Of a stretch of DNA of 64,000 bases, positions 6,363 to 57,414 are shown piece by piece (within the stretch, counting starts at the first letter, position 1; each line of letters opens with the position of its first letter). A program made the translations under genes and the position numbers. The notes below the pieces were generated by a model. That model saw nothing but the letters and a program-made list of their open reading frames with translations. It did not search any database and was not told the DNA's origin. This stretch comes from an uncultured cyanobacterium. Its GTDB lineage: Bacteria > Cyanobacteriota > Cyanobacteriia > Cyanobacteriales > CAWUOF01. The stretch lies in the NCBI GenBank assembly GCA_963744145.1, contig CAVUSO010000001.1, positions 4,768,001 to 4,832,000 on the forward strand, in the 5' to 3' direction.

Positions 6363-6899
6363 CTAGCGACAACCCCAATGATCAATTTTCCCAAGACTTT
6401 TCAGAGCTAACATGGCTTTTTTTTCAGCTTCAATCCGATTTGCACCAAATCCCCAAGCTAGATTAGTCGGATTTTTGGCGATCGCGATACATTTATCTTG
6501 ATCAATTTGATTAAAACCAGTCTTTAAGATACAAGTAGCATTAAATTTCTTTTGACATTCCACAACAGCTTGTTTTTCAGCTTCTAATTGACTGGGTAGA
6601 GAGTGAATATAATAATAATCGTTCTTACCAGAAACTGGTGTCGCGATCGCTCCGTAAGTATGAGCGGGATTAGGAACATTCCCACCTGGAGTAATTCTTT
6701 GATCTACCAATTTTGCCGATGGTTGTGGTGATGCTAATTTTGCTGAAGATTGAGGTGTGGTTTGAGGATGGAATGATGCAGAAATGGTGTGCCAAGTTGT
6801 ACCAAGCGCCGTAATTACAGCCGCAAGTCCTCCTAGTATACCCGCCATTCCACCAGGATTACCACTACTTTTTTTATCATCACTATTTTCTTCGCTCAT
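6363..6899 (-). CDS. Membrane-anchored DUF4189-like protein
   Basis: N-terminal hydrophobic helix; YGAIA...EAEKQAVVEC...C...C.AIA...EAEKKA pattern. Confidence 0.6.
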   Translation of the reverse strand: MSEENSDDKKSSGNPGGMAGILGGLAAVITALGTTWHTISASFHPQTTPQSSAKLASPQPSAKLVDQRITPGGNVPNPAHTYGAIATPVSGKNDYYYIHSLPSQLEAEKQAVVECQKKFNATCILKTGFNQIDQDKCIAIAKNPTNLAWGFGANRIEAEKKAMLALKSLGKIDHWGCR

Positions 6900-33199: not shown

Positions 33200-35308
33200 G
33201 TGAAAATTTCTTTATTACCGCTCTATTCTCAACTTAATCCTGGACCAGGAAATTGTCCTTTAGGTTGTCCACAGGTTTGTCTGGTTCGCAATCGCGCCCC
33301 CCAACTTTTACCACCAGTCGGTCAACTCTGTCCCCTCTCTTCTCACCAAGCTTTAACTTGTGCCCAATTACAACGGGGAAATGCAGATATCATTTTTAAT
33401 ACATCAGCAACCGGAGACGGTAAATCCCTTGCTGCATTTTTACCGACATTTTTAGTTCCCAGTTTTCGGATCATGGGACTATATCCTACCATTGAACTGG
33501 TAGAAGACCAAGCTGAACAACAGAAATTATATCACACTTTATTTAATTTGGATGCTGGGGTGAGAATCGATCGCCTTTTTGGTGCCGAATTGATGCGACG
33601 AGTGGTGGAAGGTGAAAGTAATAAATTTAATGAACTTTTGCAAGCTATTTATCAAAAGCCGATTTTACTCACCAATCCTGATATTTTTCATTTTATCACT
33701 CACTTTCAATATCAAAACCCGGCAATAGGGAAAGATTTGCTTCCTTTAACCTTAGCTGAATGGCCCGATTTATGGGTATTTGACGAATTTCATATTTTTG
33801 GTCCTCATCAAGAAGCAGCAGCTTTAAATAGTTTGATTTTTATTCGTCATACTCAACAGCAATTAAGACATTTTCTCTTTACTTCGGCAACACCTAAGCT
33901 GGAGTTTATTGAGTTATTGAAAAAAGCAGAGTTTCAAGTAGTGGAAGTTAAAGGAGTATATGAAAATCAAGATCATCCTGGGTTTCGTCAAATTTTACAA
34001 GCAGTTGAATTGGAGTTCGTGGAATTAAAAAATAGTGATGTGTTTACCTGGTTAACTGAAAATATTATTAGTCTGCGACAAATTTTGGAGAGGGAATGTT
34101 ATGGAAGAGGATTAATTGTGGTGAATTCTGTAGCTTTAGCAGGTCGGATTACTCGTCAGCTTCAGCAGTTATTACCAGAAGTTATTGTTAATGAAATTAG
34201 CGGACGTATTGATCGAGCATCGCGATCGCGAATTCAAGCAGATTTAAAAAATGCCAAGCAACCAGTTTTAATTGTGGGAACTTCTGCGGTAGATATTGGG
34301 GTTGATTTTAAGATTCACTTGTTGGTTTTTGAAAGTAGCAATGCTGCAACTGTAGTTCAACGTTTAGGAAGATTGGGGAGACATTCTGGATTTTCTGCTT
34401 ATACTGCGTTTGTGTTAATTTCTGATCATACTCCTTGGGTAATTGCTAGGTTGGAAGAAAAACTCCAATCTGGAACTTCGGTAACAAGAGAAGTTTTACA
34501 AGATGCGATCGCTTATGCTTTTGATCCACCCCAACAGTTTCAAGAATATCGTCATCGTTGGGGTGGTGTACAAGCTCAGGGGATGCTGATCAGAATGGGA
34601 TTTACGAAGGTTAATCAACCAGTGCGCGATCGCATGATCGAAGATTTCCAGCGAGTATATAAAAATTTCCATCCAAATTGTAACACTTGGTTTGCAATCG
34701 GACGTGATGAGGTAGGAAAAGCAATTCAAACAGAAATTCTCAGGTTTCGAGGTGGTTCAAATTTGCAATCAGGGGTTTGGGATGGTCATCATTTTTATAC
34801 TTACGATTTGCTCCGACTTATTCCCTATGCTACGGTTGAAGTTGTTGATCGTGAAGTATTTTTACCAGCAGCGATCGCAGCAGGACATAGTGCAGAAGAG
34901 TTTCCGGATCAGTATATATCAATTTATGTCCGGATTCAAACCTGGGTAGATGCGCGGTTTGAGATTAGTCTTTATTGTAATCGCGATCGGGGTGAGCTGA
35001 AATTAAACGAACTTTCTTTAATTAATCGTTTGAGTTTAATTGGACATCCCCAAACTGAGGTTCAGTCTTGTCTAAAAAAGAAAAAATTACTTACCTTTTT
35101 AGTACCAGTCGATCGCACCCAACCTAACAGTCATTGGGATGTGAGTCGGACTCTGCACCTTGGTAATTTATTTGGATTATATCGACTTGAAGATGGTTCT
35201 GGACAAGCTTATGCTTGTGCTTTTAATCAGGATGCTTTGCTGTTAGAAGCACTCAAATGGAGACTGAAAAAATTTAATCAACACCAACCTCAATCTTTAA
35301 TCTTTTAG
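33200..35308 (+). CDS. cas3: Type I-D Cas3' helicase (no HD domain)
   Basis: ATGDGKS, LTNPDIF, DEFH, TSATP, QRLGRLGRH. Confidence 0.93.
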   Translation: MKISLLPLYSQLNPGPGNCPLGCPQVCLVRNRAPQLLPPVGQLCPLSSHQALTCAQLQRGNADIIFNTSATGDGKSLAAFLPTFLVPSFRIMGLYPTIELVEDQAEQQKLYHTLFNLDAGVRIDRLFGAELMRRVVEGESNKFNELLQAIYQKPILLTNPDIFHFITHFQYQNPAIGKDLLPLTLAEWPDLWVFDEFHIFGPHQEAAALNSLIFIRHTQQQLRHFLFTSATPKLEFIELLKKAEFQVVEVKGVYENQDHPGFRQILQAVELEFVELKNSDVFTWLTENIISLRQILERECYGRGLIVVNSVALAGRITRQLQQLLPEVIVNEISGRIDRASRSRIQADLKNAKQPVLIVGTSAVDIGVDFKIHLLVFESSNAATVVQRLGRLGRHSGFSAYTAFVLISDHTPWVIARLEEKLQSGTSVTREVLQDAIAYAFDPPQQFQEYRHRWGGVQAQGMLIRMGFTKVNQPVRDRMIEDFQRVYKNFHPNCNTWFAIGRDEVGKAIQTEILRFRGGSNLQSGVWDGHHFYTYDLLRLIPYATVEVVDREVFLPAAIAAGHSAEEFPDQYISIYVRIQTWVDARFEISLYCNRDRGELKLNELSLINRLSLIGHPQTEVQSCLKKKKLLTFLVPVDRTQPNSHWDVSRTLHLGNLFGLYRLEDGSGQAYACAFNQDALLLEALKWRLKKFNQHQPQSLIF

Positions 35309-35318
35309 GTGAAAAATT

Positions 35319-38249: not shown

Positions 38250-38299
38250 ATTTTTGTAGTAATTACTGTTGTATAAATATCAAATCTGAAGGAGAAAAA

Positions 38300-39292
38300 A
38301 TGAGCATTATCGAAACCCTCAAACCTCAATTTCAATCCACTTTTCCTCGTTTAGCATCAGGAAAATATGTCCACTTTCTCATGTTACGTCACAGTCAATC
38401 ATTTCCAGTTTTTCAAACTGATGGAGTTTTGAATACAGCTCGAACTCAAGCAGGATTAAAAAGTCAAGAACCAATTAGTCGGTTAGTAATGTTTAAACGC
38501 AAACAAACTACTCCAGAACGTTTAGCAGGAAGAGAATTATTGCGATCGCTTGGTTTAACTACTGCTGACAAAGAAGATAAAGAAAAAGGATGTGAATATA
38601 ACGGAGAAGGTTCTTGTAAAAAATGCCCAGACTGTATCATCTATGGTTTTGCTATTGGTGATAGTGGTTCCGAACGTTCTAAAGTTTATTCTGATTCAGC
38701 TTTTTCTTTAAGTCCTTACGAAGAATCTCATCGTAGTTTCACCTTTAATGCTCCTTTTGAAGGTGGAACAATGAGTGAATCTGGAGAAATGCGAAGTGCA
38801 ATTAATGAATTAGATCATGTTTTACCAGAAATTACTTTTCCCACCATCGAAACTCTCCGGGATTCTACTTATGAAGGGTTTATTTATGTGCTAGGAAATC
38901 TATTACGAACTCGGCGCTATGGGGCTCAAGAATCTCGCACGGGTACAATGAAAAATCATTTACTGGGAATTTGTTTATGTGATGGGGAGATTTTTAGTAA
39001 TCTCTATTTTACTCAAGCACTTCATGATGAGTTAAAAAGTGATATTAATGCTCCCTTCAGTGATGTTTTAACTAAAGCAAGTGAGGTCGCAATGAATTTA
39101 CTGAATCAAGAACCTGTTCGGAAAACTAGCTTAATCTTCGGTGCAGATTTAGAAGCACTTCTGGCTGAAGTTTCTGCAATTTATCAAAATGAAAATGTTG
39201 TCCGAGCAACTTTAACAACCCTATCTCAGCAAACTTACTCTTATGCTGAAAGTTTTGGGGCAATTAATAAGGGTAAAGGTAAAAAGAAATAA
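38300..39292 (+). CDS. cas7: Cas7d/Csc2 backbone subunit
   Basis: KRKQ..PERLAGRELLR, C..CPDC..YGFA.G, RYGAQESRTG. Confidence 0.93.
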   Translation: MSIIETLKPQFQSTFPRLASGKYVHFLMLRHSQSFPVFQTDGVLNTARTQAGLKSQEPISRLVMFKRKQTTPERLAGRELLRSLGLTTADKEDKEKGCEYNGEGSCKKCPDCIIYGFAIGDSGSERSKVYSDSAFSLSPYEESHRSFTFNAPFEGGTMSESGEMRSAINELDHVLPEITFPTIETLRDSTYEGFIYVLGNLLRTRRYGAQESRTGTMKNHLLGICLCDGEIFSNLYFTQALHDELKSDINAPFSDVLTKASEVAMNLLNQEPVRKTSLIFGADLEALLAEVSAIYQNENVVRATLTTLSQQTYSYAESFGAINKGKGKKK

Positions 39293-39296
39293 TCAT

Positions 39297-39343
39297 TTTT
39301 AATTAGGGATAAAGTGGGATTCCTATTTTATTCCTAATTAAAA
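39297..39343 (+). terminator. Long stem-loop directly after the cas7 stop
   Basis: ttttaattagggataaagtggga-t-tcctattttattcctaattaaaa; the only non-Watson-Crick pairs are three G-U. Confidence 0.7.
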
Positions 39344-39346
39344 TTT

Positions 39347-39738
39347 AATCCAGTTCAGTTACCCGTAGGGGCAAAGCATTTCGGCGAATAAATCATTACT
39401 GAAGTGAAGAATAATATGACCGAAATGCTTTGCCCTCACCATCTATGCAGCCAGCAGATCAACCATATAAAATACCATTCAGTTACCATCTTTTTTGGAT
39501 ATCTCGGCGCAGAAGAAGGGCGAAGCATTCGGATATAATATTAACGGATTTAAGCGATTAATTATCGCCCGAATGCTTCGCCCCTACATTTAATTGAACC
39601 GGATTTTGGATATCTCGGCGCAAAAGAAGGGCGAAGCATTCGGATATAATATTACTGGTTTGATCATTCAATTATCGCCCGAATGCTATGCCTCCGGCAC
39701 GCTACGCGATCGCCCCTACATATAACTGAACCGGATTG
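39347..39738. mobile_element. Cluster of three REP/MITE-like hairpin units between cas7 and cas5
   Basis: Termini aatccagttcagtta / taactgaaccggattg; two tandem ttttggatatctcggcgca..gaagggcgaagcattcgg...ccgaatgc..cgcccctac units. Confidence 0.75.
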
Positions 39739-39770
39739 AGATCAAATCTAATTACAGGAGACAAATAATA

Positions 39771-40550
39771 ATGCTTTACCATTGCATTCTAACGCTTCAC
39801 GATAATGTATTTTTTGCCACCAGGGAAATGGGGATTCTCTATGAAACTGAAAAGTATTTGCACAATTGGGCACTGAGTTTTTCTTTGTTTAAAAGTCTTT
39901 ATATTCCCCATCCCTATCGGTTACAAGGAATAGAAGCTCAAAAACCAGGTTATTTAGATGCTCGTAATGAGCAAAACTTATTCCATCTCAATAAAGAGTC
40001 TATTTATGTTTTTCCCGGTTTACCTTTGAGTTGGTCTTACCAAGTAAATACTTTCAAAGCTGCTCAAACTACTTATTATGGTAAACCTAAACAGTTTGGT
40101 GAAAAAGGAGCCGATCGCAACTATCCCGTTAATTATGGACGTGCTAAGGAATTAGCTGTTGGTAGTCAATATCGTACCTATATCATTGGTCCTGAAAAAA
40201 TATCAAAACCGATTCCCCACTGGATACGTTTGGGAAAATGGGGAGCGAAAATTAAGGTGGAAGTTATTCCTATTCCCCCTCAAGCGATCGCCCAATGTTC
40301 CGGACAATATATCTGTCAACATCCTTTAAATCCCTTAGATTTTGCTCCTCATACTAGATTACTCTTGTATAACCGCATTGTGATGCCACCTTCTAGTTTA
40401 GTTAGTCAAGCACAACTAACAGGTAATTATTGGGAAAGTACAGGTCGAGTTTGGGAAGAATTTCAATTACAACATCCAGAATTACCAAAGAGTTTTTGTT
40501 TACCGATCGGATTATCTTATGGAGCCGCTCATGTCATCTCAGTCTCTTAG
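39771..40550 (+). CDS. cas5: Cas5d/Csc1
   Basis: LTLHDNVFFATRE, LHNWAL, GRAKELA, P.WIRLGKW, HPLNPLD. Confidence 0.92.
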   Translation: MLYHCILTLHDNVFFATREMGILYETEKYLHNWALSFSLFKSLYIPHPYRLQGIEAQKPGYLDARNEQNLFHLNKESIYVFPGLPLSWSYQVNTFKAAQTTYYGKPKQFGEKGADRNYPVNYGRAKELAVGSQYRTYIIGPEKISKPIPHWIRLGKWGAKIKVEVIPIPPQAIAQCSGQYICQHPLNPLDFAPHTRLLLYNRIVMPPSSLVSQAQLTGNYWESTGRVWEEFQLQHPELPKSFCLPIGLSYGAAHVISVS

Positions 40551-41340
40551 TTATACTATTCATTCTTTAGTTGTTGAATTAAGTGCAGCAGAAAAAGGAT
40601 TTATGCCCTTAACCCTTGTCCGCGCAATTCATTCCCAAGTAATGACTTGGCTAAAGTTAGGATCTCCTGAAATTGCTGAAATAATTCATCAATCACAAGA
40701 ATCACCTTTAAGTTTATCAGGATTGTTAGGAAATCGTCGTGCTAATGGCACACAACTAGGCGATCGGTTTTATTTTCGGATCTGTTTGTTAGATGGAAAT
40801 TTGATGCAACCGCTTTTAAAAGGTTTTGAACAGTGGGGTACAGAACCTTTAATTTTAGCAAAGTTTCCCTTTGTGATTCGCAGTATTTATACTATGCCTG
40901 GAACCCATCGATGGGCTGGTGCAGCAGAATATCAAGTGCTGGCTAATATTCCGGTCGTTAGTAATGATTTGATCCTGAATTTTATCTCTCCTACCAGTTT
41001 TAAGAAAGGTCAGACTATTCAAGTATTTCCATTACCAGAATTAGTGTTTGGCAATTTACAAAGACGATGGAATGCGTTTGCTCCTGATGAATTAAAGTTT
41101 TCAGTTAGCGAATGGTTGGGATTAGCTTCAGCTTATGAATTGAAAACTCATGCTTTAAAGATGGAAGGGGGTGCAGAAATAGGTACTCAGGGATGGGTAA
41201 GATATCGATTTCCAGATCAGGAACAGGCGAAAATTGCAACTATTTTAGCTCATTTTGCTTTCTTTTCTGGAGTAGGACGTAAGACTTCAATGGGGATGGG
41301 GCAAACAAAATTAGAGTCGGCTCTACCAACTAATAATTAA
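40519..41340 (+). CDS. cas6: Cas6 endoribonuclease (likely start at ATG 40531)
   Basis: F.SPTSF, P.PELVF..L..RWN, G-rich loop GVGRKTSMGMG. Confidence 0.95.
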   Translation: MEPLMSSQSLSYTIHSLVVELSAAEKGFMPLTLVRAIHSQVMTWLKLGSPEIAEIIHQSQESPLSLSGLLGNRRANGTQLGDRFYFRICLLDGNLMQPLLKGFEQWGTEPLILAKFPFVIRSIYTMPGTHRWAGAAEYQVLANIPVVSNDLILNFISPTSFKKGQTIQVFPLPELVFGNLQRRWNAFAPDELKFSVSEWLGLASAYELKTHALKMEGGAEIGTQGWVRYRFPDQEQAKIATILAHFAFFSGVGRKTSMGMGQTKLESALPTNN

Positions 41341-41359: not shown

Positions 41360-41950
41360 ATGAATGAACCAAATTATTTACCCTTAGCTTCTTTGAATGC
41401 TTGGGAATACTGTCCAAGACGTTTCTATTTTCAATATCAACTGGGAGAAATGGATGAGAATGAACATATTTTGATGGGGCGTTATCTGCATCGCAATATT
41501 AATGAAGAAGGTACAAGTTTAGAAGGAGATACTTTGATTCATCGTCAACAGTGGGTGTGGAGCGATCGCTTATTAGTAAATGGCATCATTGATGCAGTTG
41601 AAGAACGGGATAATCAACTGATTCCTGTGGAATATAAAAAAGGTCGCATGGCGAATCATCTTAATGATCATTTTCAAGTTTGTGCAGCGGCTTTATGTTT
41701 GGAAGAACGTACTGGACAGACGATTAATTATGGCGAAATATTCTATTACGCTAACCGTCGTCGTGAACAAGTACCATTCACATCCCAACTACGTCAATTA
41801 ACTGAAAAAGCGATCGCATCTGCTCGTGCAACAGCCGAAAAAGGCATTATGCCCGCACCAATTACTCATCCGAAAAAATGTCGAGATTGTAGTTTGCAAA
41901 GAATCTGTTTACCGAAAGAAATTCAACAATTACGCAGTGAGGTTTACTAA
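41360..41950 (+). CDS. cas4: Cas4 nuclease
   Basis: YCPRR, G.ID, PVEYKKG, C..CSL...C Fe-S ligands. Confidence 0.95.
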   Translation: MNEPNYLPLASLNAWEYCPRRFYFQYQLGEMDENEHILMGRYLHRNINEEGTSLEGDTLIHRQQWVWSDRLLVNGIIDAVEERDNQLIPVEYKKGRMANHLNDHFQVCAAALCLEERTGQTINYGEIFYYANRRREQVPFTSQLRQLTEKAIASARATAEKGIMPAPITHPKKCRDCSLQRICLPKEIQQLRSEVY

Positions 41951-41952
41951 AT

Positions 41953-42930
41953 ATGTCTGTTCTTTATGTAACTCAACCTGATGCTGTAGTTAGCAAAAAC
42001 TATGAAGCTTTTACTGTTGCTTTAAAGCAAGAAGATGGTTCTTGGCAAAAGCAAAGCGTACCTGCTCAAACTATCGAGCAAATGGTTTTAATCGGCAACC
42101 CTCAAGTTACTGGAGATGCTTTAATGTACGCTTTAGAATTGGGAATATCTGTACATTACCTATCTAATTTTGGAAAATATCTGGGATCGGCATTACCAGG
42201 TTATTCTCGCAACGGTCAATTACGATTAGCACAATATGGTGTTTATCAAGACAAAAATCGACGCTTAGAATTAGCAAAAGCGATCGTTACTGGGAAAATT
42301 CACAATCAATATGCCGTATTATATCGACACAACATTCGGGATAATCCCCTCAAACTAAGGGAAAAACAAGTCAAAGAACAAAACACCCTTGATGAGACGA
42401 GAGGAATGGAAGGTAAAGCAGCACAAGAATATTTTAGTTACTGGCAAGAAATGGTAGGAAATAAATGGAGTTTTAACGGTCGTCATCGTCGTCCACCTAC
42501 CGATCCAGTAAATGCTTTGTTAGGATTTGCCTATGGTTTATTGCGAGTGCAAATTACCGCTGCAATTCATCTAGCAGGACTAGATCCTTATATTGGTTAT
42601 TTGCACGAAGTAACTCGCGGTCAACCAGCAATGGTATTAGATTTAATGGAAGAATTTCGAGCTTTAATTGCTGACAATTTAATTTTATCTGTTTTGAGTC
42701 ATCAGCAGCTAAAACCAACTGATTTTAGTGAAAGTTTAGGTGCCTATCGTTTGGAAGAAAAAGGGCGGAAACTGTTTCTAGAAGCTTGGGAAACCAAAAT
42801 GAATAATGAATTCAAACACCCTACTTTTAAATATAGCTGTACCTATCGCAAATCGATTGAATTACAAGCTCGTTTACTCAGTCGTCACCTCCAAGAACAA
42901 GTTACCTATAAACCACTAACACTACGATGA
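41953..42930 (+). CDS. cas1: Cas1 integrase
   Basis: RGMEG, R.RRPPTDPVNALL, GLDPYIGYLH, LDLMEEFR. Confidence 0.97.
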   Translation: MSVLYVTQPDAVVSKNYEAFTVALKQEDGSWQKQSVPAQTIEQMVLIGNPQVTGDALMYALELGISVHYLSNFGKYLGSALPGYSRNGQLRLAQYGVYQDKNRRLELAKAIVTGKIHNQYAVLYRHNIRDNPLKLREKQVKEQNTLDETRGMEGKAAQEYFSYWQEMVGNKWSFNGRHRRPPTDPVNALLGFAYGLLRVQITAAIHLAGLDPYIGYLHEVTRGQPAMVLDLMEEFRALIADNLILSVLSHQQLKPTDFSESLGAYRLEEKGRKLFLEAWETKMNNEFKHPTFKYSCTYRKSIELQARLLSRHLQEQVTYKPLTLR

Positions 42931-43220
42931 CCACCCTTTTTTACCTAGTTATTTACGACTTACCCGATACCAAAGCTGCGAATAAGCGTCGTAAGCGTTT
43001 ACACAAATTGCTTTCGGGTTATGGGAAATGGACCCAATACAGCGTTTTCGAGTTATTTTTGACAAGTATGCAATTTGTCAAGCTTCAGCAACAAATCGAA
43101 ACACTCATTCAGCCCAAAGAGGATGCAGTCAAAATCTATATATTAGATGTAGGCTCGGTGAAGCGGACAATAACTTATGGTTGTGAAAAGCCTAGACAAG
43201 ATCGAACAATCATACTATGA
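42927..43220 (+). CDS. cas2: Cas2
   Basis: YLVIYDL, GYGKWTQYSVFE. Confidence 0.96.
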   Translation: MTTLFYLVIYDLPDTKAANKRRKRLHKLLSGYGKWTQYSVFELFLTSMQFVKLQQQIETLIQPKEDAVKIYILDVGSVKRTITYGCEKPRQDRTIIL

Positions 43221-43438
43221 TGTTTCCATTGGGATTTTTGGCAAGGCGAAGCGAGGTTGAAAAACCAGGGGGTGCCGCCAAAATCTCTAGAACCTTGAAA
43301 AATCAATAGTTTTGCTCTTTTAGAGCTATCAAAAAATCGCCAAAAAGAGGTTGGGGCGATCGCTGAAATGAAGTTTTTTTGGAGACCTGCCAAAACTGCT
43401 TTTCAAAGCTAGTCCCAGTAACCCTTCTAGACCCCGCT
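43221..43438 (+). promoter_or_regulatory. CRISPR leader
   Basis: 218-bp non-coding stretch between cas2 and the first repeat, with repeated gccaaaa motifs. Confidence 0.75.
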
Positions 43439-46400
43439 CTTTCTCAATACTGAATCCCGGTAACGGGACTGAAACGGTTAATCTGATGAACAGTTATTCA
43501 GGTAACATACCCACTTTCTCAATACTGAATCCCGGTAACGGGACTGAAACCAGTTATCGTTTGCGATGGGTTTCCGATCCTGAGATATAGCTTTCTCAAT
43601 ACTGAATCCCGGTAACGGGACTGAAACTGATCGAATTTGCTAGAAGCACTAAACCTAAATCAGCGAACTTTCTCAATACTGAATCCCGGTAACGGGACTG
43701 AAACATCGGTAGATTGTCTTATCCAATTTTTATTTATTTCTTTCTCAATACTGAATCCCGGTAACGGGACTGAAACTTAAAGAATATTGAGTTCTTAAAC
43801 TCTCATAGACCACTTTCTCAATACTGAATCCCGGTAACGGGACTGAAACTTGTTCTAGTATATTTTCTTCTAAGGAAGCCTGATAACTTTCTCAATACTG
43901 AATCCCGGTAACGGGACTGAAACTTGATAATTTTACCGATTACCAAATCTTGGTCTAACTCTTTCTCAATACTGAATCCCGGTAACGGGACTGAAACCTA
44001 CCTGTACTGCCTGCAACGGGACATATTGTCCCGTCTTTCTCAATACTGAATCCCGGTAACGGGACTGAAACGAGAAAGAGTTAACTGTATCGGGTTATGC
44101 TAGAGTACAGTACTTTCTCAATACTGAATCCCGGTAACGGGACTGAAACTGGAGGTGCAGGTATTAATCTGCAACATCGTTGTTTAACTTTCTCAATACT
44201 GAATCCCGGTAACGGGACTGAAACTCTGAAATGTCATCTAGCTTACTAGAATCCTTCAAGAAAACTTTCTCAATACTGAATCCCGGTAACGGGACTGAAA
44301 CTATAGGACTATATTTAATTTTATATATTTTACCTTCTACAGCTTTCTCAATACTGAATCCCGGTAACGGGACTGAAACCGTTAATGTAGCTACTCCAGC
44401 ACTACCTGGGAAATTTGCATCTTTCTCAATACTGAATCCCGGTAACGGGACTGAAACCTGCTACTCTATTAATACATTGATTAAAGTCTTTTTCTGCTTT
44501 CTCAATACTGAATCCCGGTAACGGGACTGAAACTTGTTATGTAACATATCATGAACTTGTTGTGCTATGGCTTTCTCAATACTGAATCCCGGTAACGGGA
44601 CTGAAACATCTTAATAACTTACATAAAGATGTATGTAGAGATTGTAAATTAGCTTTCTCAATACTGAATCCCGGTAACGGGACTGAAACGTATCAATTTC
44701 TGTCCAGTTACTACCATCAGCAGCAGGAACTGTACTAGATAATCCAAGCTTTCTCAATACTGAATCCCGGTAACGGGACTGAAACTACTAATCTAATTCT
44801 AACTTCTAATCAATATACACCTTTCTCAATACTGAATCCCGGTAACGGGACTGAAACGAGTACGAGAATTGTATGAAGATGAGAAACAAAGACTTTCTCA
44901 ATACTGAATCCCGGTAACGGGACTGAAACTATCGCCTTTATGGCAATCTGCTATGTAATATTTAATACTTTCTCAATACTGAATCCCGGTAACGGGACTG
45001 AAACTTGTAAAAGAATGTTTACAGCACTATATGAATAAAGATACTTTCTCAATACTGAATCCCGGTAACGGGACTGAAACCATAAAGAATATGGCGGAAA
45101 GTTTTTATTTAAAAAAGCAGACTTTCTCAATACTGAATCCCGGTAACGGGACTGAAACTTGGTTACAAGAAATATATGTAGAGTATGATACTTTCTCAAT
45201 ACTGAATCCCGGTAACGGGACTGAAACCCGATGTATCTCGAAGTATCAGGTAGAATTTTTCTTGATCACTTTCTCAATACTGAATCCCGGTAACGGGACT
45301 GAAACTATTAAATTCTATTACTAATATAAATAAGACGTTCTTTCTCAATACTGAATCCCGGTAACGGGACTGAAACTTGTAGGTATTTGCTCCCTGTTCC
45401 CAAGTTTGTGATCTACTTTCTCAATACTGAATCCCGGTAACGGGACTGAAACTTAATAATATTTCATTATCCAACCTACGTTGGATTACTCTTTCTCAAT
45501 ACTGAATCCCGGTAACGGGACTGAAACGCTAATACTACTTGGTTAACTCCTAGTAATCGTACTATCTTTCTCAATACTGAATCCCGGTAACGGGACTGAA
45601 ACTACCGTCAGCTCTATAGGGCTTATTTCTCAATGTAGACTTTCTCAATACTGAATCCCGGTAACGGGACTGAAACAAATCTAAACATACATAAATATGG
45701 TTTAATTCTTCTTCTTTCTCAATACTGAATCCCGGTAACGGGACTGAAACTTTATTATTTATAAGAGAAACTACATATACTAAACAACGTCTTTCTCAAT
45801 ACTGAATCCCGGTAACGGGACTGAAACTTTCTAGTTCACAGTTTTCTACGAACCATTGTTTTAACTTTCTCAATACTGAATCCCGGTAACGGGACTGAAA
45901 CCATAAATTTGGTATCCCTACTAATCCTAAACATTGGCTTTCTCAATACTGAATCCCGGTAACGGGACTGAAACTACAAATCCCCAATATGCCTCCTGTA
46001 TATCCAGGTCTTTCTCAATACTGAATCCCGGTAACGGGACTGAAACTCTAAATAATCCGCCAATTCATCAGTAGAGATTTGACTTTCTCAATACTGAATC
46101 CCGGTAACGGGACTGAAACACATTAAAACTCCTGCGGGTTGACAAGATGTCTGTAACTTACTTTCTCAATACTGAATCCCGGTAACGGGACTGAAACTAT
46201 AACAATAGGTATCTATATTCTCTATAGAATCTATACTTTCTCAATACTGAATCCCGGTAACGGGACTGAAACTAACAGGTTTAAAGCATCACTAACTTTG
46301 GCGTAAAGCTTTCTCAATACTGAATCCCGGTAACGGGACTGAAACAAATATTCCTATTAAATCTATTAAATTTATAGATAACTTTCTCAATACTGAATCC

Positions 46401-49400
46401 CGGTAACGGGACTGAAACTGTTGTTCAGTCATACATATACGGAAATTACTTAGGACTTTCTCAATACTGAATCCCGGTAACGGGACTGAAACTTAGATTC
46501 GACGGAAATAACGCTAGGGTGATAACGGCTTTCTCAATACTGAATCCCGGTAACGGGACTGAAACAACTCTAAGTGTACGTTATGGTTTAATCGTATAGT
46601 TAACTTTCTCAATACTGAATCCCGGTAACGGGACTGAAACCTTACTAACGATACTGTTGTAAAATTGCGTTTTAAAAACTTTCTCAATACTGAATCCCGG
46701 TAACGGGACTGAAACCAATATTGATTGTACAAAAAGTTTGTATTATATCAACTTTCTCAATACTGAATCCCGGTAACGGGACTGAAACCAGGACTTATTT
46801 CTAAATCTATACATAGTAGATCAGACTTTCTCAATACTGAATCCCGGTAACGGGACTGAAACGATCAGGATAATTTCTTAACTGCCATTTAAGGACAGTT
46901 CTAGAGCTTTCTCAATACTGAATCCCGGTAACGGGACTGAAACACACTCTAACCCGTCAACCTTAAACCACAAGGAAAACTTTCTCAATACTGAATCCCG
47001 GTAACGGGACTGAAACTAACCACCTACTGTTGTTTTAGGAGATAACGTAAATCTCACTTTCTCAATACTGAATCCCGGTAACGGGACTGAAACTTAGACA
47101 ACATAACAAACTCCTTGATCATTGTGCTTTCTCAATACTGAATCCCGGTAACGGGACTGAAACGATTTATAAGAGTTTAAATAAACTCCAGATAACCCTA
47201 CTTTCTCAATACTGAATCCCGGTAACGGGACTGAAACTGAAAGAACAAAGTATGTGTTCATCACCAATCATGATGCTTTCTCAATACTGAATCCCGGTAA
47301 CGGGACTGAAACTCTACCTATTCTTTTATTAAGATAGAGAGCAAGATAGCTTTCTCAATACTGAATCCCGGTAACGGGACTGAAACAAGTGAATTGTTTT
47401 TAATCCGTCTTTTGTAGGTTGATCCTTTCTCAATACTGAATCCCGGTAACGGGACTGAAACTACGCTGAACTGTTCCAAACAACAGAACAAGAAACTTTC
47501 TCAATACTGAATCCCGGTAACGGGACTGAAACAATGTATTATAAAAAGCTAGTTCTTCTAAACTTGTCATAGCTTTCTCAATACTGAATCCCGGTAACGG
47601 GACTGAAACTCTCAAAATACTTATGTGCTTTTTGTTTTAATAGCTTTCTCAATACTGAATCCCGGTAACGGGACTGAAACGTGCAATACCATAATGATGT
47701 TTTCCTACCTAGTACTTTCTCAATACTGAATCCCGGTAACGGGACTGAAACTATCATGATCTAGAGATAGAAGAATTAAATAATCATCTTAACAGCTTTC
47801 TCAATACTGAATCCCGGTAACGGGACTGAAACGAGAAGAACAAACAAAACAAAACACCAACTAAGGAGATTACAGCTTTCTCAATACTGAATCCCGGTAA
47901 CGGGACTGAAACCTAGAGTTATCAATTAATCCCATAGTAGATAAAGGCTTTCTCAATACTGAATCCCGGTAACGGGACTGAAACGTCTTATTTCATTCCT
48001 TCTAGAATCCAAATAATCTGGACTTTCTCAATACTGAATCCCGGTAACGGGACTGAAACTTATCCAATGCAGATGTTATATGGTCTATTATCCAGCGCTT
48101 TCTCAATACTGAATCCCGGTAACGGGACTGAAACGTAGCCATCAATGCAATGGATAAAACGCAACCAACTACTTTCTCAATACTGAATCCCGGTAACGGG
48201 ACTGAAACATAAGAAACTTTAGAAAAAACAGTCAACATAACTAACTTTCTCAATACTGAATCCCGGTAACGGGACTGAAACAATCGCGTTGATAGAGAAC
48301 ATTGGCACAATTTCTAACTTTCTCAATACTGAATCCCGGTAACGGGACTGAAACAGCAATAATTATCCTTGTCGCGTTTGCCTTTAGAGCCGCTTTCTCA
48401 ATACTGAATCCCGGTAACGGGACTGAAACCTTCCCTACAAAATCTTCGATTCCTAATAGCCCTCGGCTCTTTCTCAATACTGAATCCCGGTAACGGGACT
48501 GAAACCTAATAAAGTTGGCCAGATTGGTTCCAACCTCTTGCTTTCTCAATACTGAATCCCGGTAACGGGACTGAAACCTGTTAATATTGGAGAGTTAACT
48601 GTATCGGGTTATGCCCGCTTTCTCAATACTGAATCCCGGTAACGGGACTGAAACAAGAAACATATCTATGTATATACATGGATATAAATATAGCTTTCTC
48701 AATACTGAATCCCGGTAACGGGACTGAAACGCATTATTATTAAATTCCATTTTGTAAGGGCGTTCCCTGGGGACTTTCTCAATACTGAATCCCGGTAACG
48801 GGACTGAAACTCCAGAAAAAATACTAAGTGCGGATAATTATAGCCACTTTCTCAATACTGAATCCCGGTAACGGGACTGAAACTCGACCTGTGCAAACAA
48901 GTCGGCCAACTCATCGCCTGCGCTTTCTCAATACTGAATCCCGGTAACGGGACTGAAACAAATAATCACTACCTCCAAAATTAGGGTCAATCCCTGCAAT
49001 ATAAGTGTTGCCTGGAAATGGTTGCAGCCAAGTCCCGCTTTCTCAATACTGAATCCCGGTAACGGGACTGAAACGCTTTCAAAAATGGATATCGGTAAGA
49101 TGGATTGAAAAATCTTTCTCAATACTGAATCCCGGTAACGGGACTGAAACCTAATTGGATTTCTTGCTCCTCAATCCACCGACTTTCTCAATACTGAATC
49201 CCGGTAACGGGACTGAAACTCTTATAATCTATCTTTGTTATTCACAAACTCAGATCTTTCTCAATACTGAATCCCGGTAACGGGACTGAAACTCTATAGA
49301 TCTGATAAGAGATTGATATCTAAGATCATGACTTTCTCAATACTGAATCCCGGTAACGGGACTGAAACAATCTCTGTAGTTGGTAGTAGCTGAGTTCTAC

Positions 49401-52400
49401 ATTATTAGCTTTCTCAATACTGAATCCCGGTAACGGGACTGAAACTCTGATCTATAGCTACATATATTAGATTGTTATGGGTTCTTTCTCAATACTGAAT
49501 CCCGGTAACGGGACTGAAACAACAATACTGGATCATGCAAGACCGACAAGAAAAAACAGCTTTCTCAATACTGAATCCCGGTAACGGGACTGAAACTTGA
49601 GAAAGCTTCGCTTCGGTGACTGGGTTAAAATTGTGCGATCTTTCTCAATACTGAATCCCGGTAACGGGACTGAAACATGAAATAGTTAGTATTCTTATTC
49701 TGAGATAAGAACTTTCTCAATACTGAATCCCGGTAACGGGACTGAAACGATTCAGAAGCTCGTAAATTGGGGTCTTTGGTATCACTTTCTCAATACTGAA
49801 TCCCGGTAACGGGACTGAAACTATAATTTTTATTTTTCTTTGCCCTAAAGGGGAATAATTCTTTCTCAATACTGAATCCCGGTAACGGGACTGAAACCGG
49901 AAATTATCTAGAAAATTAGTGTGATTCAAATCTTTCTCAATACTGAATCCCGGTAACGGGACTGAAACGATTTTTTCTATGAGGATAAGAACAGCGAGAG
50001 TTCTGCTTTCTCAATACTGAATCCCGGTAACGGGACTGAAACTTTTATACGCCATCGATGATAAATGCACCTATAGCTGCTTTCTCAATACTGAATCCCG
50101 GTAACGGGACTGAAACATTAATATCCCTAGCTGTTTCTTTTTGAAATTAGCTTCTTTCTCAATACTGAATCCCGGTAACGGGACTGAAACTTTTCAAGCT
50201 CCCACTCACGGAAAACTTCTTTTCTCTGCTTTCTCAATACTGAATCCCGGTAACGGGACTGAAACATTACCAAAACGAACGGCCCGAACTGGATGCTGAA
50301 CTCTTTCTCAATACTGAATCCCGGTAACGGGACTGAAACTTTCCCTGCAACCCAAGCATTAATGGTTACTTCAGGAACTTTCTCAATACTGAATCCCGGT
50401 AACGGGACTGAAACTTTGTACGGTCCATATTTTATGTTTTTCGTTCCATGCTTTCTCAATACTGAATCCCGGTAACGGGACTGAAACATTCAGATATTGT
50501 ATTGCAATAAATCAATCTGTAGCTGCTTTCTCAATACTGAATCCCGGTAACGGGACTGAAACCACTACCCACGGTCTTAACCCAGACACAGCAAGCATCT
50601 TTCTCAATACTGAATCCCGGTAACGGGACTGAAACAATCTGGGAATGACATTTCAACTAGGTCTGACGGATCGGCTACTTTCTCAATACTGAATCCCGGT
50701 AACGGGACTGAAACATTCTGCCTTGCAACCACGGGCTTGAGCTAAAAGACTTTCTCAATACTGAATCCCGGTAACGGGACTGAAACGAAGATTGGCTCAG
50801 GAAGCGAATGAAATTTCATAGGTTTCAGTCCCGCTTTCTCAATACTGAATCCCGGTAACGGGACTGAAACTGCCCACGATACTACCCACACTACCCACGA
50901 TCATTTTGACTTTCTCAATACTGAATCCCGGTAACGGGACTGAAACTTTTTATTAGAAATATAGATTTGTTTGAAACGTTGGCTTTCTCAATACTGAATC
51001 CCGGTAACGGGACTGAAACAAGAGCAGATTTTTACCCAAATTGCCTATGACGACTTTCTCAATACTGAATCCCGGTAACGGGACTGAAACAATAATTCTT
51101 CTACTTGACAAACATGGTAAGGTGGTGCTTTCTCAATACTGAATCCCGGTAACGGGACTGAAACTTTTACAGCTAACGTTTCCCCAGTTAATTTAGTTTC
51201 TGACTTTCTCAATACTGAATCCCGGTAACGGGACTGAAACCCGTCCTTATTTAGCTGTACTGGGAGGGAGTTTTTTGACAGCTTTCTCAATACTGAATCC
51301 CGGTAACGGGACTGAAACGCTTGAACTGGGGTAGCAGTAACGGTAATTGGAGGCTTTCTCAATACTGAATCCCGGTAACGGGACTGAAACGATTGTTAAT
51401 CGCGATCGCACCTACTGATCGAAACGGCTTTCTCAATACTGAATCCCGGTAACGGGACTGAAACCTGCTCAAATAGTTTTTGATTTAACCAAATTTATTA
51501 GCCTTTCTCAATACTGAATCCCGGTAACGGGACTGAAACCCAATATAATGCCTTTAAATCCTACTGTAAAACCTAGTCTTTCTCAATACTGAATCCCGGT
51601 AACGGGACTGAAACTTATCTTTTTTATATACAATTCGGACTGGTTGTGACGGCTTTCTCAATACTGAATCCCGGTAACGGGACTGAAACTTTTCCTTGCT
51701 GTTTAAGGTTGACGGGTTAGAGTGACTTTCTCAATACTGAATCCCGGTAACGGGACTGAAACACATCACAATTATCCCATAAATGACAAAACCCATCCTA
51801 CTTTCTCAATACTGAATCCCGGTAACGGGACTGAAACAATTAATCTTAACTAAGAACGAGAACGACTAAAGCTTTCTCAATACTGAATCCCGGTAACGGG
51901 ACTGAAACAAATAAAATCTTTGCTTGCAACTAAAAAGTTAAACTCCTTTCTCAATACTGAATCCCGGTAACGGGACTGAAACTATTACCTTTACTAGAGA
52001 AGTATGGTATACACCTCTTTCTCAATACTGAATCCCGGTAACGGGACTGAAACCCTTTCTGTTGTATCCAAAACAGAAAACAATCTAGTCCTTTCTCAAT
52101 ACTGAATCCCGGTAACGGGACTGAAACTCCTGACTGCCATTGTTCTGAGGGTGAGTTTTTTGATCTTTCTCAATACTGAATCCCGGTAACGGGACTGAAA
52201 CATTTCATCATAATCAATGTACTGCCAACCATTGTCAGCTTTCTCAATACTGAATCCCGGTAACGGGACTGAAACAAATCTTGTTTGGTAGTCATTTGTC
52301 TTGTCCTGCGTCTTTCTCAATACTGAATCCCGGTAACGGGACTGAAACATGACACGAGAACCATCGGGTTCTCCGCCTTTTATTCCTTTCTCAATACTGA

Positions 52401-55400
52401 ATCCCGGTAACGGGACTGAAACTTTATATTGTCGCAAAGGGGCAGGAAACTCCAGTCCGGGCTTTCTCAATACTGAATCCCGGTAACGGGACTGAAACGA
52501 GAAAATTTAGGAGCAAAAAATGAGATTAGAAGCCTTTCTCAATACTGAATCCCGGTAACGGGACTGAAACTTCAGATTTAGTAAACGACTGCTGAATAAG
52601 TCCCAACTTTCTCAATACTGAATCCCGGTAACGGGACTGAAACAATATAACCAGATCAGCAATGATCTGGTTTTTTAATCTTTCTCAATACTGAATCCCG
52701 GTAACGGGACTGAAACTATCTATATTATATAGTTACTAGGGATTCTCTGAAGTAACTTTCTCAATACTGAATCCCGGTAACGGGACTGAAACTTGCTGGG
52801 CTGATATTGTTTATCGTCAATGTACTGATTCTGCTTTCTCAATACTGAATCCCGGTAACGGGACTGAAACTAACAGAAATGATGCGATCGCACGCCCGCG
52901 AAATTTGCTTTCTCAATACTGAATCCCGGTAACGGGACTGAAACTGGTTTATACTTATGATCATAAACCACAAGAACGGATGCACTTTCTCAATACTGAA
53001 TCCCGGTAACGGGACTGAAACCACTAAATGAACAAGAGGGAATAGAATACTCACCCATCTTTCTCAATACTGAATCCCGGTAACGGGACTGAAACTTCTA
53101 CAATCTGGCTCGACACAACTTTGCTAAAGACTTTCACTACTTTCTCAATACTGAATCCCGGTAACGGGACTGAAACATATCTATAGACGGATATTCCCCA
53201 GACCATCTGGCTTGTCAACTTTCTCAATACTGAATCCCGGTAACGGGACTGAAACTTTATTAATTCATCTCTAAAAGATATAATCTCTAATCTTTCTCAA
53301 TACTGAATCCCGGTAACGGGACTGAAACGTTATTAAGTTCTTCTACATCTAGATCATGATATACATCTTTCTCAATACTGAATCCCGGTAACGGGACTGA
53401 AACTATACATCTATACCATCGATACTAGATATAGATGCTTTCTCAATACTGAATCCCGGTAACGGGACTGAAACAAGGTTAGTTATATAATATAGGTTCG
53501 AGTCCTATACTACTTTCTCAATACTGAATCCCGGTAACGGGACTGAAACTTTTTATATAGTTTGTATAGATTCACCAACAATGGATGCTTTCTCAATACT
53601 GAATCCCGGTAACGGGACTGAAACCGATTGAGTTTTTTGCCAGAAAAGATAAAAAGCTTTCTCAATACTGAATCCCGGTAACGGGACTGAAACATCCTTT
53701 TTAGTATCTATATTTTTACATAGGTAATCTTTCTCAATACTGAATCCCGGTAACGGGACTGAAACATTATATAAAAGTAAAAGATCCATTAGCGTGGACG
53801 CCTTTCTCAATACTGAATCCCGGTAACGGGACTGAAACTATTAACAACGTCAATAATAGAAATCCTTAACTACTTTCTCAATACTGAATCCCGGTAACGG
53901 GACTGAAACTTAGATGTTTTCTTATCCCTAGGCGGTATTCCCGCCACTTTCTCAATACTGAATCCCGGTAACGGGACTGAAACAATTATTTAGGAGACAG
54001 TTTATGAACCCCATTCCACTTTCTCAATACTGAATCCCGGTAACGGGACTGAAACTTGGACGGAAACATTCCCACTTCAATCGTTGAACTGAACTTTCTC
54101 AATACTGAATCCCGGTAACGGGACTGAAACGATTTTTGCCAGATTGGTCGGATCTTATCCGCCTCGCTTTCTCAATACTGAATCCCGGTAACGGGACTGA
54201 AACTTCCCAAGGAGTGGAAAACCGAGGAGCTGTAAAGCCAACTTTCTCAATACTGAATCCCGGTAACGGGACTGAAACTTTCGATTAATTCTGGATCATG
54301 TTCAGGAACTCGACTTTCTCAATACTGAATCCCGGTAACGGGACTGAAACACAGTGCCAAATGATGCTCCTAGCCACAATTCACCCACCTTTCTCAATAC
54401 TGAATCCCGGTAACGGGACTGAAACCCCCCAAAACCGGGGGATAGGATAGAATATTCATGTCCTTTCTCAATACTGAATCCCGGTAACGGGACTGAAACT
54501 TGAGAAAATAAATTCTTATCGGTTGATCAGAGAAGAACTTTCTCAATACTGAATCCCGGTAACGGGACTGAAACGACCCACAAAATTCGCTATTTTTGCG
54601 AAGGTTGCCACTTTCTCAATACTGAATCCCGGTAACGGGACTGAAACTCGTATGGCTTAAGTTGGCTAGATTCATTCCTTTCCAACTTTCTCAATACTGA
54701 ATCCCGGTAACGGGACTGAAACTCCAGGCCAATTGATTTTGCTAAATATTCCAAAGAAACATCTTTCTCAATACTGAATCCCGGTAACGGGACTGAAACC
54801 GGATTGTTGCACTACTGGCGCAGGTTGTGGTGGATGGCTTTCTCAATACTGAATCCCGGTAACGGGACTGAAACCAATGAAACGGCTCAATACTCTTTGG
54901 ATAAATTTACCGACTTTCTCAATACTGAATCCCGGTAACGGGACTGAAACTTGTGCGAGCGGTTTTGTTGGTAGTAGTCATTGTCTTTCTCAATACTGAA
55001 TCCCGGTAACGGGACTGAAACTATTTTTTTATAGTTCTTGTTTTAAGAGAAAATTGAGCTTTCTCAATACTGAATCCCGGTAACGGGACTGAAACTTACC
55101 AATCGGCGATCGCCCATCCGTACTCAAAGCAAGCTTTCTCAATACTGAATCCCGGTAACGGGACTGAAACATACACAGTAATCGTTACAGCGATTTTAAA
55201 AAAACTTTCCGACTTTCTCAATACTGAATCCCGGTAACGGGACTGAAACAACAGCAGAAGAATGTTGTCTTCTCATTAATGAAGCCGCTTTCTCAATACT
55301 GAATCCCGGTAACGGGACTGAAACTCGAACGATGTAACTATAGCCTTTTCGCTGTAAAAACTTTCTCAATACTGAATCCCGGTAACGGGACTGAAACGCA

Positions 55401-55631
55401 TCTTGGCTTAACGTTCTTGAAAACATTACTTCATCATTACTTCTTTCTCAATACTGAATCCCGGTAACGGGACTGAAACTATGCGTCTTTGTCGTCCAAA
55501 GACCACTGCTTACGGTCAGACTTTCTCAATACTGAATCCCGGTAACGGGACTGAAACTTCTTCCATCTACTCCATCTCCGTTAACTTTGCAGCACTTTCT
55601 CAATACTGAATCCCGGTAACGGGACTGAAAC
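43439..55631 (+). CRISPR. Type I-D CRISPR array, about 163 repeats / 162 spacers (manual count)
   Basis: Invariant 37-nt repeat CTTTCTCAATACTGAATCCCGGTAACGGGACTGAAAC (hairpin TCCCG-GTAA-CGGGA, 3' GAAAC); spacers mostly 32-45 nt. Confidence 0.99.
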
Positions 55632-56297: not shown

Positions 56298-57414
56298 ATG
56301 GTTAGAAAAAGCAGATGGTTTCGATTTTGCTGGGCAAGCAGCACTTTCCTGTATTTTAACAGTCGTAGTCAGTGCTTGTGTTGTCCAGAAACAAAATGGG
56401 CCAAATACAAGTGCGAGTGGAACACCAACAACTGCTCCTAGTAGTGCTGCTGCGGGAAGTGCTATTACAGTCTACACTGCTTTAGAAGATGACCAACTTG
56501 GTAAATACTTACCCTTATTTCAAAAAGTTCATCCAGAAATAAAAATTAACAAAGTTAGAGATTCTACCGGAGTAGTTACAGCGAAACTATTAGCAGAAAA
56601 AGAAAACCCTCAAGCAGATGTAGTTTGGGGACTAGCAGTTTCTAGTTTATTAGTTGCGGATCAACAAGGAATGTTAGAACCCTATGCTCCCCAAGGACTA
56701 GAAGCTGTTGGTGCTAAGTTTAAAGATGAACGTACTCCTCCCCATTGGGTAGGAATTGATGCGTGGATGTCTGCATTTTGTGTCAATACAAAAGAAATGC
56801 AAAAGAAAAATTTACCCATTCCCCAGTCTTGGGATGATCTAACCAAACCAGACTATAAAGGGATGATTGTAATGTCGAATCCAGCATCCTCTGGGACAGG
56901 TTTTCTCTCGGTTTCTGCACTTTTACAAATGAAGGGAGAAAAAGCAGGTTGGGATTACCTTGATGCGTTAGATAAAAATGTAGCTCAATATGTGCATTCA
57001 GGTTCCAAACCTTGCAAAATTGCTGGTTCAGGGGAATATCCCATTGGTATTTCTTTTGATTACCGAGCTGTAAAACAAAAGAATGATGGAGAACCCATTG
57101 AAGCAGTGTTCCCGAAAGAAGGATCAGGATGGGATATTGAAGCTAATGCTTTAGTGAAGAAAAGTACCATTAATCCAGCTGCAAAAACATTCTTAGATTG
57201 GGCGATTTCCCCAGAAATAACTAAATTATATGCCGAATCATATCCAGTAACTGCGTTGAAAAGCGGTGTACCAATTCCCAAAGGATATCCAGAAGATCCG
57301 GTGAAACAATTGAGCGAAAAGAATGATTTTAATTGGGCTGCTAAAAATCGTGAAGCAATTTTAACTGAGTGGACTAAACGCTACGACTCTAAGTCAGAAC
57401 CGAAGAAGAGTTAA
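56298..57414 (+). pseudogene. 2-aminoethylphosphonate-type ABC substrate-binding lipoprotein (PhnS2-like), frameshifted in the signal peptide
   Basis: GAGG RBS and ATG at 56298; removing one T from TTTT at 56325-56328 gives [27 protein letters not shown] in frame with [34 protein letters not shown] and ORF 56671-57414. Confidence 0.8.

Follow-up and report, generated by a model that had tools for sequence, protein, structure and literature searches.

Three of the 162 spacers in a type I-D CRISPR array of an uncultured cyanobacterium carry, at one end, an inverted copy of an end of the array's own repeat. The array is contained in a stretch of 64,000 nucleotides (nt) (GenBank assembly GCA_963744145.1, contig CAVUSO010000001.1, positions 4,768,001 to 4,832,000), referred to below as the window, in which it occupies positions 43439-55631 of the + strand and comprises 163 identical 37-nt repeats and 162 spacers. 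The inverted fragments of spacers 98, 82 and 9 are real, recurrent and anchored at the repeat boundary, and a chance match is excluded. We tentatively regard the three spacers as chimeras that arose as by-products of type I-D adaptation by Cas4-Cas1-Cas2, each having been joined to a repeat, cut off and re-inserted backwards, a reading that we would place just short of probable. We take them for rare mis-products of machinery that is already known and not for a new system.

Anatomy of the chimeric spacers

Spacer 98 (positions 50787-50833, + strand) is 47 nt long and lies between two perfect repeats (50750-50786 and 50834-50870). A non-repeat core of 35 nt (50787-50821), which includes the 12-nt palindrome ATGAAATTTCAT, is followed by a tail of 12 nt (50822-50833). 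This tail, GTTTCAGTCCCG, is the exact reverse complement of the last 12 nt of the repeat (repeat positions 26-37, CGGGACTGAAAC). It corresponds to the 5' end of the repeat's bottom strand, and the boundary of the repeat is precisely where the match starts; seen from the other strand, spacer 98 consists of 12 nt of repeat end and then 35 nt. The place and make-up of this spacer had been given correctly in a first-pass annotation of the window. By position it fits a spacer of a type I-D array, having intact direct repeats on both sides and a type I-D cas operon upstream. Its length is outside the normal range of the array: the mode is 36-38 nt, the other spacers shorter than 50 nt have a mean of 37.5 nt (standard deviation 2.5), and only two of the 162 spacers (59 and 78 nt) are longer, these being the only two of the other 159, non-chimeric spacers with at least 47 nt. 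No full reverse-complement repeat was found in the window, even with up to 6 mismatches allowed, so spacer 98 is not an inverted segment of the array.

Spacer 82 (49597-49639, + strand, 43 nt) begins with a head of 9 nt (49597-49605, TTGAGAAAG) that is the reverse complement of the first 9 nt of the repeat. Likewise, the first 7 nt of spacer 9 (44072-44112, + strand, 41 nt) form a head (44072-44078, GAGAAAG) that is the reverse complement of the first 7 nt of the repeat. In both, a core of 34 nt follows. When every spacer end was compared with every repeat end in both orientations (four classes of terminal match, 162 spacers), these three spacers gave the inverted terminal fragments (12, 9 and 7 nt), and no forward-orientation fragment exceeded 3 nt among the 162. 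The null expectation was obtained from 20000 composition-preserving shuffles of all spacers. A shuffled array contained on average 0.053 spacers with any terminal match of at least 7 nt, none of the 20000 contained three, and a single one contained a terminal-to-terminal match of 12 nt. A 12-nt match to the repeat at any spacer position and on either strand turned up in 3 of 200 shuffles, while arithmetic from the base composition of the spacers gave about 3e-6 exact terminal 12-mers expected per array.

Junctions and lengths

The repeat piece of each of the three chimeras has the first nucleotide of a repeat strand as its starting point. The piece in spacer 98 is the 5' end of the bottom strand, and those in spacers 82 and 9 are, when the bottom strand is read, the 5' end of the top strand. 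These first nucleotides are the places where Cas1 joins the 3'-OH of a prespacer, according to passages of PMC10212523 and the Figure 7 legend of PMC5737086. The cores of spacers 98, 82 and 9 (35, 34 and 34 nt) are within the normal range of 32-45 nt, and the totals of 47, 43 and 41 nt belong to the top 1.3%, 5.7% and 12.6%, respectively, of the other 159 spacers. Since the totals are long and the cores of normal size, the repeat nucleotides look as if they had been added to a measured prespacer rather than counted within it. Every one of the chimeras thus shows what the scar of an aborted or re-processed Cas1 integration should show, namely a start at the joining nucleotide and a remainder of prespacer length.

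The core of spacer 9 gives independent information. Spacer 69 (48578-48617, + strand), acquired separately, has the same target in the same orientation, and 24 nt are common to the two. The similarity stops at the start of the repeat-derived head, where spacer 9 reads GAGAA and spacer 69 reads ATTGG. The target that supplied the core was therefore sampled twice, and the head is foreign to it. Together with the spacer lengths, this shared core makes an old array spacer a less favoured starting material than a prespacer that had just been captured.

Insertion in the wrong orientation has left other traces in the array. Spacers 47 (46944-46979) and 110 (51690-51725) are reverse complements of each other with identical boundaries (33 of 36 positions identical over a 36-bp stretch). 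They represent one protospacer, taken from variant targets and inserted in both orientations, so infidelity of orientation does exist in this array. Spacers 58 (47752-47795) and 132 (53329-53366) derive from related targets, with stretches that overlap but lie on opposite strands. In the context known from spacer 132, GTA immediately precedes spacer 58, in agreement with a GTN protospacer adjacent motif (PAM).

Several other spacers show partial resemblances to the repeat. Spacer 148 (54500-54537, 38 nt) begins with TTGAGAAA, that is 8 of the 9 nt of the spacer 82 head without the final G, which could be due to chance or to capture from a variant repeat. Spacer 74 (48960-49037) measures 78 nt, about two spacer lengths with no repeat between them. 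Its final 7 nt, AGTCCCG, belong to the reverse-complement repeat and stop where the tail of spacer 98 stops in the repeat. CCCG is also the end of spacer 69. A fixed stop at repeat position 11, as the CCCG ends of spacers 98, 74 and 69 might suggest, is not supported, a count of three being unexceptional against a null of shuffled 4-nt words. An origin of the CCCG tails by slippage into the leader was also dismissed: the leader ends in GCT, and one spacer shares at least 3 nt with it where 1.6 are expected. In spacer 17 (44690-44748, 59 nt), positions 8-22 are similar to the start of the reverse-complement repeat (13 of 15) and are followed by 37 nt. Degenerate repeats inside the long spacers 17 and 75 were discarded as candidates, their local alignment scores lying within the range of shuffled sequences.

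Searches for a source

The first-pass annotation had proposed that spacer 98 was a repeat-spacer junction inserted backwards, captured from a CRISPR array of the host or of a mobile element or derived from an excised unit. In kind this holds, given the exact boundary and the two mirror-image spacers, with host array, mobile element and excised unit as candidate sources. No source copy of the 35-nt part was found in this array, in 22 fetched related loci (L001-L022, comprising related arrays and their flanks), in the phages of INPHARED or in the plasmids of PLSDB. More specifically, the 162 spacers of the array do not include a reverse complement of any of the three cores. When all spacers were compared with the 22 loci and PLSDB, no source spacer turned up, and the only matches, all to spacer 98, ran through its tail. 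Those in L004, L009 and L020 (Rhizonema and Nostoc loci) were rejected as sources, as they consist of the repeat-derived tail and a few chance bases.

A scan of genome contigs with the 3' 20-mer of the repeat (the 3' end being ACTGAAAC) gave nine loci and two single chance matches, none of them this array. The arrays detected in that scan belonged to Scytonema, Rhizonema and Aetokthonos only, and no source spacer was present at the matched loci. Against phages, spacer 98 gave five weak partial matches only (E at least 0.3, unrelated phages), and the unit consisting of spacer 98 and its flanking repeats had no match among plasmids. The whole array, searched in two halves, matched none of the 50,697 phage records of INPHARED, repeat included. 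Against PLSDB it gave only periodic array-to-array alignments with cyanobacterial type I-D arrays that have different repeats. Accordingly, neither a protospacer for spacer 98 nor a mobile element with an identical repeat was found in INPHARED phages or PLSDB plasmids. Two further origins were rejected. Self-spacers from the leader or the cas genes are not indicated, no spacer matching the non-array part of the window beyond 14 exact nt. Capture of complementary DNA made from CRISPR RNA (crRNA) is not indicated either: there is no reverse transcriptase at the locus, and spacers 82 and 9 do not fit such a model.

Related arrays

Spacers were compared with those of related arrays from Scytonema, Rhizonema, Aetokthonos, Sphaerospermopsis, four Picosynechococcus plasmids, Gloeothece, Anabaena cylindrica, Allocoleopsis, Synechocystis pSYSA and two Nostoc plasmids. 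This gave 475 spacer-sized intervals (61 of 68, 129 of 133, 123 of 124, and 162), those above 100 nt having been dropped as non-spacers; not all are independent, as spacers are duplicated between or within some arrays. Inverted terminal fragments of at least 7 nt were present in none of these type I-D-type intervals. Comparing 3 of 162 with 0 of 475 gives a one-sided probability of about 0.016, so the inverted form is unusually frequent in the array studied here, and the process is either rare or specific to this host.

A direct copy of the first 7 bases of the array's own repeat at the 3' end of a spacer was seen in two of the 475 intervals. One is spacer 1 of L001 (40 nt, L001 positions 85-124), in a two-repeat stub at a contig end; the other is spacer 23 of L015 (42 nt, minus-strand position 15168), the oldest spacer of its array. 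These two are the non-flipped equivalent of the chimeras, both in atypical places. In plasmid pAQ4 of Picosynechococcus PCC 7002 (L012, intervals 5910-6018 and 6627-6739), two type I-D repeats have 1-nt indels in the hairpin loop; parsing that allowed only substitutions merged the spacers beside them into intervals of 109 and 113 nt. A literature search of limited coverage returned no description of spacers containing inverted repeat ends.

A possible re-processed by-product of integration

The anatomy, non-randomness, exact junctions and lengths of the chimeras could be explained as follows. Cas1 would join the 3' end of a prespacer of normal length (34-35 bp) to an end of the leader-proximal repeat, namely the bottom-strand (spacer-side) end for spacer 98 and the top-strand (leader-side) end for spacers 82 and 9. 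The repeat strand would then be cut 7-12 nt from the junction, with the insertion still incomplete or unrepaired. The molecule that was cut might be a one-ended product, a gapped two-ended intermediate with single-stranded repeat strands, or a just-finished unit on another copy of the chromosome. The released prespacer, now with repeat nucleotides on one 3' end, would be re-integrated in the opposite orientation, which would leave the core between an intact repeat end and an inverted copy of that repeat end. We infer this order of events, as well as the cutting nuclease and the flip. The resulting chimeras are probably by-products without function.

The steps have some basis in published work. 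In vitro, one-ended insertions by Cas1-Cas2 are frequent and reversible and failure of second-site integration is common, as described in PMC8390005. For type I-D, passages of PMC10212523 propose that the non-PAM end integrates first at the leader side, whereas Cas4-Cas1 processes the other end. A section of PMC5737086 describes strand-asymmetric hotspots for protospacers at active arrays and ascribes them to nicks on both sides of the first repeat. The 5' start of the repeat is carried by four of five events (the three chimeras and the two direct cases in related arrays), five being too few for a test. A 5' start would be the product of leader-side joining, the step that comes first in the type I-D model outlined in those passages of PMC10212523.

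The type I-D PAM is GTN (PMC5896167; also in passages of PMC10212523). Inspection of the repeat shows that NAC, GTN in complement, is first reached 9 nt into its top strand and 13 nt into its bottom strand. The extension predicted from NAC is 9 nt against 9 observed for spacer 82, and 13 nt against 12 observed for spacer 98. These positions weakly suggest Cas4 as a possible cutting nuclease. A more specific version, which we consider rather improbable, is that the chimeras are footprints of the adaptation complex re-processing its own gapped intermediate. A new spacer duplex with two single-stranded repeat strands would resemble a prespacer with long 3' overhangs; Cas4-Cas1 would cut at the first PAM-like NAC, the cut end would become the PAM end, and the spacer would flip.

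Several observations weigh against a re-processed by-product. The cores are on the short side, since a length of 35 nt or less is found in 17.6% of the other spacers. The comparator intervals contain no inverted terminal fragment of at least 7 nt. A cut by Cas4 at NAC is off by 1 nt for spacer 98 and by 2 nt for spacer 9, and the two direct 7-nt cases do not fit it, their repeats having no NAC near position 7. All three events are flipped, although the model does not strictly require this, and the expected non-flipped products are absent from this array. Finally, a source array may lie elsewhere in the genome or on a mobile element.

Alternative explanations

This last point leads to the possibility that the chimeras were acquired in the ordinary way from pre-existing array DNA with the same repeat, a fragment across the junction of repeat and spacer having been taken up in the sense opposite to that in which the array is transcribed. 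Such DNA might belong to a further host array, to a sister copy of the chromosome, or to a phage or plasmid with a mini-array or a solitary repeat unit. Arrays are documented hotspots for protospacers in P. furiosus and, by work cited in the same paper, in E. coli, with a switch of strand around the first spacer (in passages of PMC5737086). In the reverse-complement repeat, GTA, a functional GTN PAM of type I-D, directly precedes the 9-nt head of spacers 82 and 148, and at 38 nt spacer 148, in which 8 of the 9 nt form the start, is of normal length. The 12 nt of spacer 98, moreover, match the repeat exactly and are contiguous with its boundary. Yet capture limited by a ruler predicts normal totals, whereas all three chimeras are long and their non-repeat parts are close to a full spacer. 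In spacer 98 the PAM-proximal end would be on the wrong side and shifted by a 1-nt slip. It also predicts that the source spacer can be found. The searches revealed neither that spacer (in the array, the 22 loci or PLSDB) nor the repeat (in the phage records), and forward-orientation captures are missing among the 162 spacers. We regard this origin, the strongest alternative, as possible but unlikely. It would merge with a re-processed by-product if the source were a just-integrated unit on another chromosome copy in a polyploid cell.

An event after integration is very unlikely. A template switch of the quasi-palindrome or hairpin type might have copied the neighbouring repeat end in inverted form into a normal spacer of 35 nt. 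The product is indeed a perfect inverted repeat, its 12-bp stem closing a loop that is either the 35-nt core or 25 nt of the next repeat. The core is also of normal length and has microhomology to the repeat end (TGAAA/TTTCA). Template switching does not, on the other hand, require three independent events to start exactly at the repeat boundary, and no priming homology was found at the junction. To our knowledge, insertions of 7-12 nt in the absence of a pre-existing imperfect palindrome are not typical of template switching, which also counts against it. An artefact of assembly or sequencing, or a chance match, is scarcely credible: 163 identical repeats are hard to assemble, but an artefact would have had to make three clean fragments of different length, each anchored at the boundary, and yet leave all 163 repeats perfect, and chance is excluded by the 20000 shuffles. 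We attach almost no weight to the idea that the fragments are selected regulatory elements, kept for an effect on crRNA processing, on other crRNAs, or on the array through a match of PAM and seed. In its favour, the predicted 12-bp helix of spacer 98 abolishes the upstream Cas6 hairpin, a predicted 9-bp stem formed by the spacer 82 head encloses the upstream repeat, and the spacer 82 crRNA would match every repeat by a GTA PAM and a 9-nt seed, as read from the repeat. Such elements are not conserved among the comparator spacers, the three cases are unlike in length and position, and Cas6 could bind co-transcriptionally before the tail exists.

Predicted effect on the precursor RNA

Folding of the repeat-spacer 98-repeat unit gave a 12-bp helix between the tail and the 3' half of the upstream repeat, the partner being the last 12 nt of that repeat (50775-50786, + strand), in both the minimum free energy and the centroid structure. 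The repeat by itself is predicted to form a 5-bp stem with a GTAA loop, the putative Cas6 hairpin. In the spacer 98 unit the upstream hairpin is displaced by the 12-bp helix and lost from the fold (-36.9 kcal/mol, z = -3.2; none of 200 shuffles folds as well). In spacer 82 the head pairs with the first 9 nt of the upstream repeat, giving a 9-bp stem that encloses the hairpin. The suggestion in the first-pass annotation that the tail can compete with the Cas6 hairpin in the precursor of crRNA is thus supported at the level of predicted RNA folding; the alternative helix is predicted to be able to compete, as a side effect of the chimeras. Cas6 may, however, bind the upstream repeat co-transcriptionally, ahead of the synthesis of the tail. 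The same annotation had considered that the tail could act as antisense to other crRNA handles. We consider this unlikely because the handles are protein-bound in Cascade.

Relation to known processes

The chimeras resemble the self-sampling of arrays described in passages of PMC5737086 for P. furiosus, and for E. coli type I-E as cited there, in that the source is the Cas1-nicked region of the array; the strand-asymmetric uptake around the first spacer reported there would give spacers inverted with respect to the array. The events described in these passages are transient, were detected by deep sequencing and have normal length, whereas here three over-long natural events have been fixed. 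They also differ in that each keeps a full-length core whose source spacer is absent from the array. Half-site integration and disintegration (passages of PMC8390005) and the two-step model for type I-D (passages of PMC10212523) are closer in one respect, since the junction between the 3' end of a prespacer and the first repeat nucleotide is the bond made there. Published disintegration restores the prespacer precisely, however, and for a release that carries along 7-12 nt of repeat no description was found in the literature searched.

Imprecise acquisition that yields slipped and flipped spacers has reportedly been described by Jackson et al. 2019 and Shmakov et al. 2014. The chimeras share with these the character of rare mis-processing with shifted ends or reversed orientation, and spacers 47 and 110 are a flipped pair. 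Slipping adds PAM nucleotides of the target, though, while the extra nucleotides here come from the host's own repeat. Mini-arrays of viruses and plasmids, solitary repeat units and RNA anti-CRISPRs are said to have been reported by Medvedeva et al. 2019, Faure et al. 2019 and Camara-Wilpert et al. 2023. Elements of this kind would supply foreign DNA in which a host-type repeat stands beside a spacer-like sequence, and this is how the reverse strand of spacer 98 looks. In contrast to such elements, no INPHARED or PLSDB record contains the repeat, and a source of this kind does not predict three cores of prespacer length.

Almost all knowledge of integration intermediates stems from experiments in vitro or from laboratory adaptation assays analysed by deep sequencing. 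In a natural array, three spacers that each keep a piece of repeat at the exact joining site of Cas1 might be a record of such intermediates. If chimeras of this type were common, they would provide a sequence signature from which the rate of integration failure, the repeat end attacked first and the site of cutting could be read from genome data alone. Should the re-processing of a gapped intermediate be the correct version, sequenced arrays would also record the order of integration and the specificity of Cas4 in vivo, and each of the 163 repeats in its own array would offer the crRNA of spacer 82 a GTA PAM and a seed match of 9 nt. The host is probably little affected, since of 162 crRNAs only one or a few would be poorly processed or fail to function. 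In practical terms, chimeric spacers confuse the mapping of spacers to hosts because a 12-mer query matches every array that shares the repeat end; in the comparison with the 22 loci, spacer 98 matched three other arrays through its tail alone. They should be recognised and trimmed.

The locus and its surroundings

The window contains a complete type I-D CRISPR-Cas locus in which cas genes, leader and array follow each other on the + strand. The cas genes were named by NCBIfam models, most of which scored over their curated cut-offs. The interference genes (33200-41340) are cas3' (33200-35308, TIGR03158), cas10d/csc3 (35319-38249, TIGR03174 at 679.9 bits), csc2/cas7 (38300-39292, TIGR03157), csc1/cas5 (39771-40550, TIGR03159) and cas6 (40519-41340, TIGR01877). 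They are followed by the adaptation genes cas4 (41360-41950, TIGR00372 at 131.8 bits), cas1d (41953-42930, TIGR04093 cas1_CYANO at 407 bits, cut-off 385) and cas2 (42927-43220, TIGR01573), so that the array is located directly downstream of cas4-cas1-cas2. Among plasmid-borne relatives of Cas1d, the best ones came from Nostoc (73-74% identity). With the 3' 20-mer of the repeat found in arrays of Scytonema, Rhizonema and Aetokthonos only, this makes a cyanobacterium of Nostocales type the probable host. A leader of 218 nt (43221-43438) extends from cas2 to the first repeat. Within it, about 15 nt upstream of that repeat, positions 43411-43424 read AGTCCCAGTAACCC, which is similar to the central hairpin region of the repeat. 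The Rfam model CRISPR-DR52 matched the repeats at 26.6 bits, under its gathering score of 50.

The last of the 163 repeats is the same as all others, so the array is without a degenerate terminal repeat. The spacers show a bias at their ends: the first base is T in 74 of 162, and the last is A or G in 120 and C in 10. The first gene past the array (56671-57414) encodes a homologue of a 2-aminoethylphosphonate ATP-binding cassette (ABC) substrate-binding protein. It scored 350.5 bits against a cut-off of 392.75 and covers only positions 93-334 of the 334 in the model, and it may be truncated at the N-terminus beside the end of the array. Outside the array, tandem repeats were noted at 28882-29324 (48 nt, 9.2 copies, 98% matches), within the open reading frame 28234-29730, as well as at 7649-7830 (42 nt, 4.3 copies) and 13287-13402 (33 nt, 3.5 copies).

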